Shown: positions 46,390-51,976 of the stretch, piece after piece | How the letters are laid out: each line of letters begins with the position of its first letter | Position numbering within the stretch: the stretch's first letter is position 1 | DNA from: Thainema sp. | GTDB taxonomy: Bacteria > Cyanobacteriota > Cyanobacteriia > Phormidesmidales > Phormidesmidaceae | Reading direction: 5' to 3' | NCBI GenBank assembly: GCA_052168235.1 | Contig: JBQLZK010000001.1 | Span: forward strand, 224,001-288,000 | Length of the DNA: 64,000 nucleotides | The notes under the pieces: generated by a model | What the model saw: the letters and a program-made list of their open reading frames with translations, nothing else | Database searches by the model: none | What the model was told of the DNA's origin: nothing | Made by a program: the position numbers and the translations under genes

Positions 46390-47696
46390 TGCTATTGAAT
46401 GCGGAGGAACTGCGATCTCGCTTTTTTCGGCTAGCCGTGGTCAACGTGCTATCAAATTTGCTGGTGCCGCTGGCCGGATTGGCGGATACGGCTTTTTTGG
46501 GGCACTTGTCCGACATTCGGCACTTAGCGGGTGTCAGCCTTGCAACGGTGCTGTTCAACTATATTTACTGGACATTTGGCTTTTTGCGAATGGGGACGAC
46601 GGGCACGACCGCGCAAGCCGTTGGTCGCCAGGATCAGCTTGCGGTCTATGCCACGCTGTTGCGGAACGGGCTGCTGGGGATTGCGATTGGTCTGGTGATT
46701 CTAGTCTTTCAGGAACCAATTCGGCAGATTGGCTTTGCCCTGCTGAGCGCCACGCCCGAGGTGGAACAGTCGGGACAGGCTTATTACCGAGCCTTGATTT
46801 GGGGTGCTCCGGCCACGCTGCTGAACTTTGTGCTGCTGGGCTGGTTTTTAGGCCGGGCGGAAGGCAGGCGAGTTTTAGTTCTGTCGATGGTGAGCAACGG
46901 CTGTAATGTTTTGCTCAACTACTGGCTGATTGTCCGGTTGGGCTGGGCTAGTGCTGGAGCAGGGGTGGCGACGGCCTGTAGTCAGTATCTGATGCTATTG
47001 ATTGGCCTGGGCTTTGTGCTCCGCGAGTTCCCGTGGTCAAAGCGGCGCTTACTCACTGCTCAGCTCTGGGATTTGAGCGTTTTGACCGATACCCTGCGGC
47101 TGAATCGCGATATTTTGATTCGCACGTTTGCCTTGCTGTCGGTCTTCGCCGCCTTCACCAATATCAGTGCGGCGATTGGCACACTGACGCTGACGGCGAA
47201 TGCGCTGCTGCTGCAAATTTTGTCCCTGGCGGCCTACTTTATTGACGGCTTTGCCTTTGCAACTGAAAGTTTAGTCGGCATTCTCAAAGGCCAAGATGAT
47301 CATCGACAAATGCGCCATCTACTGCGATTGGCGGGCGGCGTTAGCTTTGGGCTAGGAATTGCGATCGCACTTCTCTTTATGCTTTTCCCCCAGCCGCTCT
47401 TCGGTATCCTAACCAGCCATGACAATGTCATCAGCAGCGTTTCTCGCTATGTACCTTGGCTGTTGCCCCTCCTGGGTTTTGGCTCTCTAGCCTATATTCT
47501 GGACGGTTATTTTCTGGGATTAACCCAAGGCCCCATTCTGCGCCGCGCATCTATTGTGTCGGCAATTGTCGGCTTTGCACCGCTGGCAGCTCTCGCCTGG
47601 TGGCTGGAAAGTACGCCACTTTTATGGACAGCGCTAACCTGTTTTATGGCCGCTCGTGTGATCACCCTCGGTCGCAACGTAGAGTATCGCTCATAG
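46386..47696 (+). CDS. MATE family transporter (DinF-like)
   Basis: VPLAGLADTAFLGHL, FLRMGTTG.TAQA, DILIRT, AYFIDGFA.A.E; ATGA overlap with tetR. Confidence 0.9.
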   Translation: MMLLNAEELRSRFFRLAVVNVLSNLLVPLAGLADTAFLGHLSDIRHLAGVSLATVLFNYIYWTFGFLRMGTTGTTAQAVGRQDQLAVYATLLRNGLLGIAIGLVILVFQEPIRQIGFALLSATPEVEQSGQAYYRALIWGAPATLLNFVLLGWFLGRAEGRRVLVLSMVSNGCNVLLNYWLIVRLGWASAGAGVATACSQYLMLLIGLGFVLREFPWSKRRLLTAQLWDLSVLTDTLRLNRDILIRTFALLSVFAAFTNISAAIGTLTLTANALLLQILSLAAYFIDGFAFATESLVGILKGQDDHRQMRHLLRLAGGVSFGLGIAIALLFMLFPQPLFGILTSHDNVISSVSRYVPWLLPLLGFGSLAYILDGYFLGLTQGPILRRASIVSAIVGFAPLAALAWWLESTPLLWTALTCFMAARVITLGRNVEYRS

Positions 47697-47801
47697 TCTG
47701 ACTCAGTTGAATGTCGTTTCTGGAGTAAATATATCTTGAGGAATGATAAACAAACTCTAAACAGCCTGAGCCTGAAATTATAGGGGTGGTTATACTGAAT
47801 T

Positions 47802-47924
47802 TTTCTGCCTAATTCCCCAAATAGGAATGTTAGGCTGACGAATTTCTATCTAATCATCTAGATAAGGTGATTAGGCTGATGGATTTCTACCTAATCACCC
47901 GAATAGGTGTGTTAGGCAGAAAGT
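47802..47924. repeat. Three tandem 41-bp hairpin units with CTAA...TTAGGC arms
   Basis: Units start at 47802, 47843 and 47884; consensus TTTCTRYCTAAT-N16-TTAGGCWGA. Confidence 0.85.
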
Positions 47925-47971
47925 TTCCCTCCAATTAATAGTTAGACCTCCAATACGAGTAGGTAGACAAG

Positions 47972-49177
47972 ATGGAGGATGAAATTCTAGAAAAATCGGT
48001 TTCCCGTATAGAAAGTTCTCACAGAAACTCAGCAATTTTGCGACGAAAGTTACTGGAGAAGCATAATTATGCTTGTACTATTTGCGGGGTAAAAAATGAG
48101 GATGTTCCATTAGAGATTGCTCACTTAGTTCCATTATATAAAGGCGGAGAGACAAGTGAGGATAATCTTACACTCCTCTGTCCAAACTGTCATAGAGTAT
48201 TAGATTCTCAACCCAGAGAGATTGAGTTTGTAGATTTCCTATCAGAGCTACTGAACAATCATCCAAACTTTGAAAACGTAAAAAAAGAGGTTTTATTAGG
48301 ATCTGAAACCCGTTTCCGGGGCGACATCCTTGTAAAGAGAAAAGAAGGAAGTAGGCAACAAACTTTAGTGATAGAGTGTAAAACCTCGAGGATCTTACAC
48401 TCTGCCACCTTGAAAGATATAATTGCCCAGTTAAATACCTATCAAAACCTTTGTGATGGGTGCTGCATGGTTTTAGCTGTAGCAGGAACATTACTCGATC
48501 AAGATTTAGTGTTACTGCAACAGCACATGATTGAAGTATGGGATCTTGAGTATATAGCAGTAACCTTCGCGGCTCAAATTAAAGAATCCCCAATAAGCTA
48601 CTACAAAGCTTTACTACTTGCTCGTCTTGCACGTGCATCAAACTCATTCAAAGAGCAAAGCTTTATTAGTTTCCTGAAAACATGTCAGCCAGGAAAGAAA
48701 GATTGCTATGTATACCAAAGCCTCATAGGTGACATTTTGGAATATCTATTTACGCCTCCATTGGCAAAACCCATTCCGGAATTATCAGACAGAGTTCTAG
48801 CAAATAGACGAGATTTTATTTTGCCGAACTATGTGGAAAAGGGTTTCTGGGCATTCATGCGAGAAAAATATGCGGCAGATTATATTGTTGTGGATGCAAA
48901 AAATTACACGAGAAAGGTAAAGAAAAATGAGGTATTACAAATTGCTAATTATCTAAAGCCTCACGGAGCAGGACTTTTTGGGATCATTATTTGCAGAAAA
49001 GGAGGAGATTCGACTGGATGTGAACACACACTACGTGAACAATGGTTAGTCCACAAGAAGCTAATATTAGTATTGGATGATGGAGATATTGAGAAGATGT
49101 TAATTTCTAAATTAGATGGCAACCCTCCCGAGGATTTAATCAGCCAAAAGATTGAGCAATTCAGGTTGTCAATGTAG
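47972..49177 (+). CDS. HNH + two PD-(D/E)XK (Mrr-like) domain nuclease, cassette 1
   Basis: CTICG...AH..P...GG....NL..LCPNCH; RGDILV...IECKT; RRDFIL...VDAKNY; visibly AT-rich, no HIP1. Confidence 0.8.
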   Translation: MEDEILEKSVSRIESSHRNSAILRRKLLEKHNYACTICGVKNEDVPLEIAHLVPLYKGGETSEDNLTLLCPNCHRVLDSQPREIEFVDFLSELLNNHPNFENVKKEVLLGSETRFRGDILVKRKEGSRQQTLVIECKTSRILHSATLKDIIAQLNTYQNLCDGCCMVLAVAGTLLDQDLVLLQQHMIEVWDLEYIAVTFAAQIKESPISYYKALLLARLARASNSFKEQSFISFLKTCQPGKKDCYVYQSLIGDILEYLFTPPLAKPIPELSDRVLANRRDFILPNYVEKGFWAFMREKYAADYIVVDAKNYTRKVKKNEVLQIANYLKPHGAGLFGIIICRKGGDSTGCEHTLREQWLVHKKLILVLDDGDIEKMLISKLDGNPPEDLISQKIEQFRLSM

Positions 49178-49263
49178 TTCTAACAAGCACGTTGCAGCGG
49201 AATGAGTAAAGCTCTTGGTGCTTAGTCTATACTACTTGCATCCGCTGAACGTGATCGTTAGGC
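49178..49263 (+). other. attC site 1 (86 bp)
   Basis: R'' TTCTAAC; CACGTTGCAGCGGA pairs with TCCGCTGAACGTG leaving one extrahelical base; R' GTTAGGC. Confidence 0.88.
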
Positions 49264-49407
49264 GGCTAAATTTCCCTATTAGTAACGGCAGTCTTTTCAC
49301 GATTTGAGCATTAATCCGCATCAAGATTTCCAGCTCACGGTCGGGGGTGAAAGCGCCGCTGCAAGTGAGTGGAGCTAAAATTGAGAAGCAAGTAATTTGC
49401 AAGGATT

Positions 49408-49692
49408 ATGACGCTGAACTTAGATTTGCCACCCGAACTAGAGCAGTACCTCTTGCAAGAAGCCGAGCAGCAAGGTCTATCGGTTGAAGCAATGACCCTA
49501 CAGCTTTTGACGAACTCGCTTCAACTCAGGCAAAAACAAGCTGAAGCCATTGATATGCTTCAGTCCTGGATTGACGATGAGGACGTTGAAGAGCAACAGG
49601 AGACAGGCGAGTATTTGGTTCAGGTGCTGGACGAGGATCGGCTGTCTGACCGCAAGTTATTCCCGCTTGAAATGAAAGGGATTACATGGTAG
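49408..49692 (+). CDS. Putative antitoxin, cassette 2
   Basis: MTLNLDLPPELEQYL..EA...GLS.E RHH-like start, acidic tail, overlaps the PIN gene. Confidence 0.78.
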   Translation: MTLNLDLPPELEQYLLQEAEQQGLSVEAMTLQLLTNSLQLRQKQAEAIDMLQSWIDDEDVEEQQETGEYLVQVLDEDRLSDRKLFPLEMKGITW

Positions 49693-50141
49693 AGCGTTTG
49701 ATTGTATTGGATACAGGGCCAATCGGCCTGGTTACCAATCCCAAACTCTCTTCCCAAGGTGTTGCTTGTAACCAGTGGCTTCAGTCTCATCTCAAGTTGG
49801 GGAACCGGATAATCGTTCCGGAAATTGCTGATTATGAAGTGCGTCGCGAGTTGTTGCGAGCCAATAAAAAGAAGGGTCTCACTCGGCTAGATAGCTTGTG
49901 TCAAAGACTTGAGTATTTACCGATTACAACTGCCTCAATGCGGCAAGCGGCTGAACTATGGGCACAGGCGCGACAGCAGGGACAGCCAACGGCAGGGGAT
50001 AAAACCATTGACGGTGACATGATTCTGATTGCTCAGGCTAAGACTCTGGGAGCCTCAGATGTGGTGATCGCTACAACTAACGTGGGGCATTTATCGAGGT
50101 TTATTGCAGCGGACTTATGGCAGAACATTCTTCCCAATTAA
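49686..50141 (+). CDS. PIN-domain (VapC-like) toxin, cassette 2
   Basis: IVLDTG, EIADYEVRRE, D.D.ILIAQA, ATTNVGHL. Confidence 0.88.
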   Translation: MVERLIVLDTGPIGLVTNPKLSSQGVACNQWLQSHLKLGNRIIVPEIADYEVRRELLRANKKKGLTRLDSLCQRLEYLPITTASMRQAAELWAQARQQGQPTAGDKTIDGDMILIAQAKTLGASDVVIATTNVGHLSRFIAADLWQNILPN

Positions 50142-50146
50142 CCGCC

Positions 50147-50232
50147 ACCTAACACCTCGTTGGTGCGGACAGAACAAAGGTTATCGGTAAGAGTTCAGGT
50201 TTATCTGCCGCCGCTACACTTCACCGTTAGCT
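50147..50232 (+). other. attC site 2 (86 bp)
   Basis: R'' ACCTAAC, L'' GTTGGTGC, partly degenerate L' GCTACAC, R' GTTAGCT; same length as attC1. Confidence 0.8.
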
Positions 50233-50301
50233 GAATTCTTTTTTGGCTTGGGACGTACAGAGAGGCTATTTGCTGGTATCTGAGGATGCTCGTTCTAGTA
50301 G

Positions 50302-50329
50302 CTCTGGTATGACTGAGGTATAACCAGAG
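50302..50329 (+). promoter_or_regulatory. Putative toxin-antitoxin promoter/operator
   Basis: CTCTGGT...ACCAGAG inverted repeat containing GGTATGAC/GGTATAAC direct repeats and a TATAAC -10-like hexamer. Confidence 0.55.
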
Positions 50330-50354
50330 AATAGAACTTTAAGTTAAGGCCACC

Positions 50355-50591
50355 ATGAAAACTGCAATTTCGCTGCCAGATTCAGTTTTTGAGCAGGCGG
50401 AAGCACTTGCTCAGCAGTTAGGAGTGTCGCGCAGTGAGCTTTACACAAAAGCGCTACAGGCATACCTAAAAAAGTACAACCGTGAGCAAATGTTGCTCAA
50501 GTTGAACCAAGTTTATGGTACAGAGTCCTCTGAACTTGATCCAGTGATGGCAAGGATGCAGTTTATGTCTTTGCCCCACGAGGATTGGTAA
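50355..50591 (+). CDS. RHH antitoxin (ChpI/MazE-type), cassette 3
   Basis: MKTAISLPDSVFEQAEALA..LGVSRSELY..AL; ends EDW overlapping the toxin. Confidence 0.88.
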   Translation: MKTAISLPDSVFEQAEALAQQLGVSRSELYTKALQAYLKKYNREQMLLKLNQVYGTESSELDPVMARMQFMSLPHEDW

Positions 50592-50929
50592 TGTATCGGG
50601 GAGAAATTTGGTGGGCTAACCTACCCGATCCAGTGGGTTCAGAACCTGGATATCGTCGTCCCGTCTTGGTGATTCAGGATGATACATTTACCCAGAGCCG
50701 GATTCGCACTGTTATCGTCGTTATCATTACTTCCAATATTCAGTTAGCGGAAGCACCAGGCAATGTACTATTACCGCGTGAGGTATCCGGTTTGTCGAGA
50801 GATTCCGTTGTAAATGTCTCTCAAATTCTCACGCTCGATAAGACGTTTTTGGTTGAGCGTATTGGTTCACTACCGGACTACTTGCAGGAGGAGATAGACG
50901 AGGGGCTACGAACAGTTTTGTATCTCTAG
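50585..50929 (+). CDS. mazF: PemK/MazF family toxin, cassette 3
   Basis: RGEIWWA.L..P.GSEPG.RRPVLVIQ.D.F, SGL.RDSV.NVSQI.TLDK. Confidence 0.9.
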   Translation: MVMYRGEIWWANLPDPVGSEPGYRRPVLVIQDDTFTQSRIRTVIVVIITSNIQLAEAPGNVLLPREVSGLSRDSVVNVSQILTLDKTFLVERIGSLPDYLQEEIDEGLRTVLYL

Positions 50930-50935
50930 CAACGC

Positions 50936-50960
50936 CAGCTGCCCAGCCAATGGAGCGGCG
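50936..50960 (+). other. Decayed left arm of a third attC
   Basis: CAGCTGCC-CAGCC-AATGGAGCGG where CAGCTAAC (complement of GTTAGCTG) is expected. Confidence 0.45.
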
Positions 50961-50987
50961 AATATTAGTTTTTTATGAGCTGAGTTG

Positions 50988-51767
50988 TTAATCATCGACT
51001 AGCAAGAAGCGGCGATTCAGTGGCTGCACTGGGCGGGCATTCAGCGGGAAAATATCGCTGAATAGGCCAATTTGAGCTGGAGACACTTCAGTCGGCGTTT
51101 GGAACATCACCCATTTCACAATCTCGGAGCAGGGTGGCGTGGTCAGCGAGCCAAAGTAGCGATAGGTACTTTGATCGGCTGGCAGAAGCTGAGCAATGTC
51201 AATATTGACGCCAGGAATCGTGTCTTCAGCGCTGGGCTGACGCGGCATGGCGTCCCAAATGGGCTTCAGAACTCGATTTTCCGCACCTTCTTTCAGAAGA
51301 ACGCCCAGCACCGCCAAGTTGCCAGCGGCATTCTTATGCACAAAATGAGCCTCCATCGGCATCGTCTCACCCTCTACCGTATGTTCGCTGGGATGGTGAA
51401 AGTGAAACTGAAGCAAGTCATACCGCTCACCGTCAATCAGAATGTAGCTGCCCGGATCGGTGTTAATTTGAATCGCGTGGCCATTGTTGACGATGCGTAG
51501 GGGAACAGACTGATAATGCACACTTACGTTAGCCATATCCACCGCAATCCCTTCATGCAAATCAATCGGAGACTGCTGCATGCCAGCACCACAGGCTTGG
51601 TACTCCGGCGATAGATCATCCCATTCGCTGGGATTGTTCTCGCCGACATAGCCCCATTCGGCTCCTTGTTCACTTGCGATCGCATCTTTTAAAGACAGGT
51701 TGGTCAGACTCACGACCGCACTCATCGCAGCCAGCTTGAACATTTGTCGCCGATTGATCCCAGTCAA
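50988..51767 (-). CDS. ecaA: Alpha-class carbonic anhydrase with Tat signal
   Basis: NRRQMF twin-arginine, QSPID, QFHFH.PSEH, E.HFVH, GSLTTPPCSE. Confidence 0.9.
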   Translation of the reverse strand: MTGINRRQMFKLAAMSAVVSLTNLSLKDAIASEQGAEWGYVGENNPSEWDDLSPEYQACGAGMQQSPIDLHEGIAVDMANVSVHYQSVPLRIVNNGHAIQINTDPGSYILIDGERYDLLQFHFHHPSEHTVEGETMPMEAHFVHKNAAGNLAVLGVLLKEGAENRVLKPIWDAMPRQPSAEDTIPGVNIDIAQLLPADQSTYRYFGSLTTPPCSEIVKWVMFQTPTEVSPAQIGLFSDIFPLNARPVQPLNRRFLLVDD

Positions 51768-51800
51768 ATTGCTTGTCCTCTTCTATTACTGGTGGCCTAA

Positions 51801-51904
51801 TATCCAAGTCTGATTGAAAACCCATAATTTATTTTTGGTGAAATGTTTGCTCCGCAAATGTTTCACCAAAAATAAATTGGGTTCTTATATACAGACTTGA
51901 TATA
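51801..51904 (+). mobile_element. ~104-bp hairpin mini-element, family C copy 1
   Basis: CAAGTCTG...CAGACTTG ends, central stem capped by TTGCTCCGCAA; related to 55805-55904 and 57475-57569. Confidence 0.7.
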
Positions 51905-51976
51905 AGACGTGCCCCCAGTATATTTTTCCGATTCGGACGCTCCCGTTCACGTAATGAAATGATCCAAATCGATTTT

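Follow-up and report, generated by a model that had tools for sequence, protein, structure and literature searches.

A cassette array in the Thainema genome stands at an integron platform that has no integrase gene, and the platform was likely reloaded with cassettes by an IntI acting in trans after its integrase had been lost. The locus works like an integron, yet it is not a complete one, being without intI. It lies within the 64,000-nucleotide stretch of DNA analysed here (the window) and holds three cassettes with five co-oriented genes, flanked by a MATE gene and an alpha-carbonic anhydrase gene (ecaA). A first-pass annotation had described an integrase-less array at this position. The features it gave for the cassette starts and ends are all present where it placed them, open reading frames and Pfam matches agree on five co-oriented genes between the MATE and carbonic anhydrase genes, and no intI occurs inside the window. 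What it overlooked is the integron platform itself, which spans 47721-47947 and comprises an intI leader and an attI.

The attI platform and its lost intI

47721..47783, reverse strand: intI 5′ leader/promoter region, aligning with the leaders of intI stubs on contigs C41, C71 and C80
47802..47920, forward strand: attI accessory region of three 41-bp palindromic repeats (z −4.7)
47807, 47848 and 47889 (RYCTAAT), 47829, 47870 and 47911 (RTTAGGC): heptamers of the attI repeats, IntI-box-like, in inverted pairs
47929..47947, forward strand: attI core, with L box CTCCAAT, 5-bp spacer and R box GTTAGAC
47941|47942, forward strand: attI crossover G|TT; identity to paralogues and to the congener stops at the core

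Homology to the leaders ends with the first base of what was the intI start codon, and the intI coding sequence is gone from the window. The block is identified as an attI with an intI leader through its homology to DNA that adjoins intact intI genes: the window attI shares 83% identity with the attI of an intact intI locus in the genome G019, and the same type flanks intI in G020. Among the full-length intI loci inspected, most have similar 41-42-bp repeats, as judged by eye. Homologous blocks on other contigs retain a divergent 5′ intI stub (C41 and C71) or five codons (C80 and C36). An intI next to attI, as in a complete integron, was not found; elsewhere in the assembly there are only 5′ stubs. 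The number of attI repeats differs from platform to platform. The window attI matches 44 of 60 genomes of the family, and these matches mostly stop at the crossover. Judged from these alignments, the orphan site is a genuine attI with a G|TT crossover. No earlier description of this repeat attI was found in the literature searched.

The intI stubs on C80 (L079) and C36 (L072) both end at the same fifth codon and have different flanks. Several platforms have in common a first cassette of ~180 bp that apparently lacks an ORF (L073:2499-2682, L079, and L152 of the congener G001). Arrival of the platform as one large cassette, with its left junction at a donor G|TT, was considered and rejected; such a junction fits the C41 stub, as judged by eye, and misfits the window, C80 and C36.

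The first-pass annotation had further proposed a dispersed system, and the genome indeed contains 10 attI platforms and 20 attC sites scored by a covariance model (150 of ~1169 candidates were scored, and 15 of the 20 are training sites of the model). Pieces of attI were also seen within arrays of relatives, where the G|TT of an attC runs directly into the last 30 nt of an attI or a full attI lies 170 bp beyond an attC; elsewhere two attI stand in tandem.

L165:10757-10869 (G019), L134:7578-7974 (G005), L167:5009-6941 (G019): attI-in-array loci

In G019, an attC is joined directly to the GTTAGGC of the last repeat. Such joints suggest that IntI may be able to move attI itself and that crossovers can take place at the repeat boxes.

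The motif HIP1 is absent across 47362-51675, in agreement with the first reading. HIP1 is missing from 76 of 2402 comparable 3020-bp windows genome-wide (3%), so its absence lends mild support. Of the 20 platforms of G000 and G001 (e.g., L038:1230, L072:4025, L056:515), 10 have HIP1 no more than 150 nt from their left edge, compared with 14-16% in control windows; the anchors of this count are rough, some of the loci are orthologous, and the window platform is not one of them. It is also found right after the intI stop codon in several intact loci. HIP1-linked deletion or capture may trim platforms. As a general target just after attC, HIP1 was rejected: it follows three terminal attC in the genome, but across the family one attC end pattern had 116 matches, of which only two were followed by it.

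Cassettes, attC sites and cargo

47941, forward strand: start of cassette 1 (GTTAGAC)
47972..49177, forward strand: cassette 1 gene, a 401 aa nuclease (Pfam HNH)
C35, C38, H51, N65, C70, C73, H74: HNH domain of the nuclease
D118, E135, K137: Mrr/NucS-like PD-(D/E)XK domain of the nuclease
D281, D308, K310: FokI/BspD6I-like PD-(D/E)XK domain of the nuclease
49178-84, forward strand: end of cassette 1 (TTCTAAC)
49178..49263, forward strand: attC1, intact (70.5 bits; bottom-strand fold z −4.7)
49257, forward strand: start of cassette 2 (GTTAGGCGGC)
49408..49692, forward strand: cassette 2 antitoxin candidate, FitA-like RHH (E 0.006, under the Pfam cut-off)
49686..50141, forward strand: cassette 2 PIN-domain (VapC-like) toxin (PF01850, 27.4 bits, cut-off 23.6)
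50144-53, forward strand: end of cassette 2 (GCCACCTAAC)
50147..50232, forward strand: attC2, recognisable, L′ arm mismatched (56.6 bits; poor fold)
50226, forward strand: start of cassette 3 (GTTAGCTG)
50355..50591, forward strand: cassette 3 RHH antitoxin (PF12651, over the cut-off)
50585..50929, forward strand: cassette 3 PemK/MazF toxin (PF02452, 100.7 bits)
50937-43, forward strand: end of cassette 3 (AGCTGCC)
50937..50990, forward strand: attC3 remnant (R″ AAC changed to GCC; 28-bp internal deletion)

The two complete attC sites each measure 86 bp, as first described. We scored them with a covariance model (R1) trained on 17 attC sites, all outside the window (15 from the Thainema genome and two from the congener); two of the training members are 84-87% like attC2, and one is the congener orthologue of attC3. 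In the training stem, 87% of cells are paired, 13 of 19 pairs show two-sided changes, and none of 500 shuffles reaches the score. The model gave 70.5 bits to 49178-49263 and 56.6 bits to 50147-50232, and the next independent match over the 64 kb reaches 11.2 bits, the exception being the reverse strand of attC1. The claim that the cassettes are genuinely of the IntI type is supported.

The three sites are preserved to different degrees. The bottom strand of attC1 forms a canonical hairpin (z −4.7, 0 of 200 shuffles), and this site has the full set of boxes, extrahelical base and bottom-strand hairpin expected of an integron-cassette attC. attC2 is recognised by the model; its fold is no better than that of shuffles (z +0.67, L′ arm mismatched), and its paralogue on contig C4 folds better. 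attC3 is broken and went undetected by the model across the 64 kb. Its G|TT at 50987|50988 continues into the stop codon of ecaA, which is on the opposite strand. Full-length versions score 37.1 bits in G001, where the site is a training sequence, and 38.8 bits in G034. The complete G001 site likewise enters the ecaA stop codon with its G|TT, and the window copy lacks 28 bp and the AAC. The segment 51015-51045 was rejected as a right arm of attC3, being ecaA coding sequence; the congener places the true end at 50987. A heuristic attC scan, with 32 matches against ~19 expected, was too noisy for counting. A search of Rfam returned no family at the gathering score. A palindromic repeat of ~110 bp at 51795-51910 of the window is MITE-like and has many copies in the Thainema genome and the congener.

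The far end of the array meets host DNA exactly at a G|TT that overlaps the ecaA stop codon and fits the GWT consensus of attG. The junction counts in favour of the first-pass annotation's version, in which the cassettes accumulated at a secondary (attG) site of the chromosome and no integron platform was involved. That reading is nevertheless highly improbable for the array as it stands, because a full attI with an intI leader lies directly upstream of cassette 1, which places the cassettes at a true attI, and because cassette turnover happened at that attI. Host DNA is met at the far end alone; insertion at a GWT outside attI and attC does not describe cassettes 1 and 2, which are located at attI, and an attG event would at most explain the first seeding of the locus.

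Cassettes of this array move as units bounded by G|TT, cassette 2 being found in G005 and cassette 3 in G034 and G035, within other arrays; both recur as separate units in other genera and families, where cassette 3 has 79-91% identity. In G005 the whole of cassette 2 is present with 92.8% identity; there it begins with a G|TT of its own, immediately follows another attI that has an intI stub, and bears a different attC. The differing attC sites of the VapBC-like cassette in two genera (window 50147-50232 and L136:6633-6719) suggest attC exchange. Among public sequencing runs, none of RNA was listed for the locus; three runs from a single study contain low-depth contigs that match the junctions at attC1 and attC2, and these contigs show no excision joint.

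The cassette 1 nuclease matches PDC-M36A of PADLOC (E 2.6e-12), a partial match that covers the C-terminal part only. In its structure model (pLDDT 84.6), the Mrr/NucS-like domain has a best fold match with Z 12.3 (rmsd 2.6, 117 aligned) and the FokI/BspD6I-like domain one with Z 11.7 (rmsd 3.0, 148 aligned). Catalytic-type residues are conserved across the domains, and the motifs are intact. We found 470 homologues, spread over phyla. At about 10 of 31 homologue loci inspected (75 found), an attC-like AAC follows soon after the stop codon, as judged by eye, and the covariance model confirmed an attC at four of eight tested. Relatives occur as cassettes elsewhere, e.g., adjoining an IntI-like gene in Thauera. 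Among the neighbours of homologues (46 scanned of 139) are some restriction-modification, AbiH, HipA, reverse transcriptase and IntI-like genes, along with many housekeeping genes. From its domain content and this partial defence-island context, cassette 1 may reasonably be taken to encode a candidate single-gene defence nuclease. A two-gene cassette on C80 (L079:4002-5410) has a second gene with 33% identity to nuclease residues 230-400. The C-terminal nuclease module occurs split or fused with different N-terminal domains.

Cassette 2 encodes a VapBC-like candidate pair, a PIN toxin with an upstream RHH-like ORF, and cassette 3 a predicted MazEF/PemK type II toxin-antitoxin pair whose antitoxin gene lies upstream and overlaps. 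The array had been called devoted to defence and toxin-antitoxin genes; this describes the cargo in the window, but it is strain-specific, as the congener has a SAM-methyltransferase cassette there.

Cassette turnover at the orphan attI

The comparison with relatives of the same genus involves one congener, G001. Its gene order is TetR, MATE, intI leader, attI, SAM-methyltransferase cassette, MazEF-like cassette and ecaA. The methyltransferase cassette takes the place of cassettes 1 and 2 of the window, and the MazEF-like cassette and ecaA are shared. As the intI-less left junction is the same in both congeners, intI was already missing in their common ancestor. Between the two, identity breaks off after GTTA at 47944, the fourth base of the R box, and returns with the G|TT of 50226, so that the first-position change breaks at the attI crossover, whether it was a gain or a loss. 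Past service in trans is supported by the difference in cargo at an attI whose intI is missing in the same way from both congeners.

Service in trans had been proposed in the first-pass annotation, and our results back it for the past and speak against it for the present. No intact intI was detected in the Thainema assembly with HMM and tblastn searches, nor an intact IntI in that of G001, both being draft assemblies; the supplier was thus not seen, and the array is probably frozen at present. An IntI that scores as intact is frequent among kin: 23 of 41 genomes have one above the TIGR02249 cut-off. The complete chromosome of G005 has 41 attC matches and three IntI over the cut-off, one of them with a stop, and ~14 attI-like matches lie within the 21 regions fetched from it.

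In the mechanism that we propose, IntI would have recombined folded attC bottom strands with the window attI, with the integrase supplied either by another platform of the lineage, since lost, or by DNA that entered the cell transiently. Cassettes are inserted by IntI at attI (PMC4889954), so the newest cassette comes first. The MazEF-like cassette, which both congeners share and whose attC has decayed, would then have arrived first; the VapBC-like cassette with its mismatched attC would have followed, and the nuclease cassette, whose attC is intact, would be the latest arrival. A newest-first order agrees with the increasing decay from attC1 through attC2 to attC3 and with cassette 3 being the only one shared. 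The two toxin-antitoxin pairs would stabilise the array, and the triple nuclease would cut foreign DNA.

The orphan attI is conserved between the congeners at 147 of 160 positions (91.9%), compared with 392 of 552 fourfold sites in four flanking genes (71.0%; Fisher p 9e-9 against attI); the next intergenic region has 222 of 306 identical. The intI leader is conserved too (74/86, 86%). A role as promoter might account for the conservation of the attI, and so might a low mutability of AT-rich DNA. The first of these leads to an explanation in which the platform was retained as a Pc promoter for the first cassette, the cassettes having changed early and recombination having been unselected since. 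The conserved leader agrees with it, and so does the short distance of 31 nt ahead of the cassette 1 start codon, for which an upstream promoter would be needed. We consider it quite improbable, however: the entire repeat array and core are conserved, not a single motif; a consensus scan for Pc, which is a weak test, stayed at chance level and was blank upstream of cassette 1; and even a change at an early stage would call for IntI in trans.

Another alternative is that the array is a frozen relic in which the block from attI to MazEF was swapped by homologous recombination after natural transformation, the attI repeats and the MazEF cassette serving as arms. Kin do possess attI paralogues and MazEF cassettes of 89-91% identity, the congeners differ near the attI core (a 5-bp insertion and L-box changes), and an intact IntI is absent. 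Such a swap would require a donor with exactly attI-X-MazEF, and it leaves the conservation of attI unexplained. Between the congeners the MazEF cassette has diverged roughly as far as the backbone (92.4% identity vs 91.1% for MATE), and they share its decayed end, which also counts against such a swap; we regard this route as unlikely. The window attI is nearer to its orthologue (89%, BLAST) than to its paralogues (85% at most), which argues against wholesale homogenisation. None of the new cassettes of either strain was found as a close copy at the other platforms of the other strain.

An empty MATE-ecaA junction, which the first-pass annotation had suggested looking for, was not found in 30 relatives, and two pattern scans of metagenomes gave no match. 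A search of plasmids gave 17 records, each a partial C-terminal match. No clean empty sites were obtained for the C41, C36 and C51 loci. At the C4 locus the element is absent from G001, but the region is rearranged.

More tentatively, filamentous-type cyanobacteria might possess a distributed integron, with many self-spreading multi-box attI docks per chromosome that can do without an intI of their own, are kept under selection and are reloaded when an IntI is present. Many cyanobacterial 'CALINs' could then be live docking sites and not relics.

Comparison with known systems

The comparisons below refer to the available parts of the cited papers. A CALIN has two or more attC and no nearby intI (PMC4889954), and the first-pass annotation's use of the term holds, with at least two attC found by our own covariance model and no intI nearby. 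Loss of intI and insertion at secondary sites have been given as origins of CALINs, with mobilisation by integrases encoded elsewhere as a speculation (PMC4889954); their mobilisation in trans is stated or speculated in PMC4889954 and 10.1101/2025.06.18.660453. Their origin and continued activity are an open question (PMC4889954; 10.1101/2022.09.11.507474), for which the locus is a natural before-and-after pair: an intI-less attI at which the cassettes changed and the site was conserved. The locus differs from the CALIN as described in PMC4889954 by its hidden attI and by cassette turnover after intI loss. This attI escapes IntegronFinder, which recognises attI only by exact matches to those of classes 1-3 and uses C-terminal profiles to look for pseudogenes of intI.

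In cyanobacteria, integrons, multiple intI and pseudo-integrons are already known (PMC4889954, PMC2426708, PMC8352920). The locus adds a defined cyanobacterial attI sequence, none having been found described for the phylum in the literature searched, and it offers a direct test of recombination in trans and a candidate three-domain defence nuclease. Like attI1 of class 1 integrons (S1/S2, DR1, DR2; 10.1101/2022.02.06.479319), the window attI has an L box, a 5-bp spacer, a G|TT and upstream integrase-box-like extras; unlike attI1, it has six extra putative boxes, in three inverted pairs with a 41-bp period. Insertion at attG and SALINs (10.1101/2022.09.11.507474) resemble the far junction, with G|TT in host DNA, and delta-attI cassettes (PMC12901181) resemble the partial attI pieces inside the arrays of relatives. 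In contrast to both, the window cassettes were loaded at attI.

Defence and toxin-antitoxin cargo is expected in cassettes, and sedentary chromosomal integrons have compact single-gene nuclease fusions and toxin-antitoxin pairs as cargo, as here (10.1101/2024.07.02.601686). The triple fusion of HNH, Mrr-like and FokI-like domains is not among the systems seen in the available part of that source; the nearest library match is PDC-M36A, which covers the C-terminal part of the fusion only. Xanthomonas integrons likewise have a lost or broken intI at a fixed chromosomal locus (10.1101/2025.06.18.660453). There, intI loss is accompanied by stable arrays at one ancestral locus, whereas Thainema has ~10 platforms per genome and its array changed. 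The parts of the Thainema locus are all of known kinds, and what is new here is the evidence for cassette turnover and conservation at an orphan attI.
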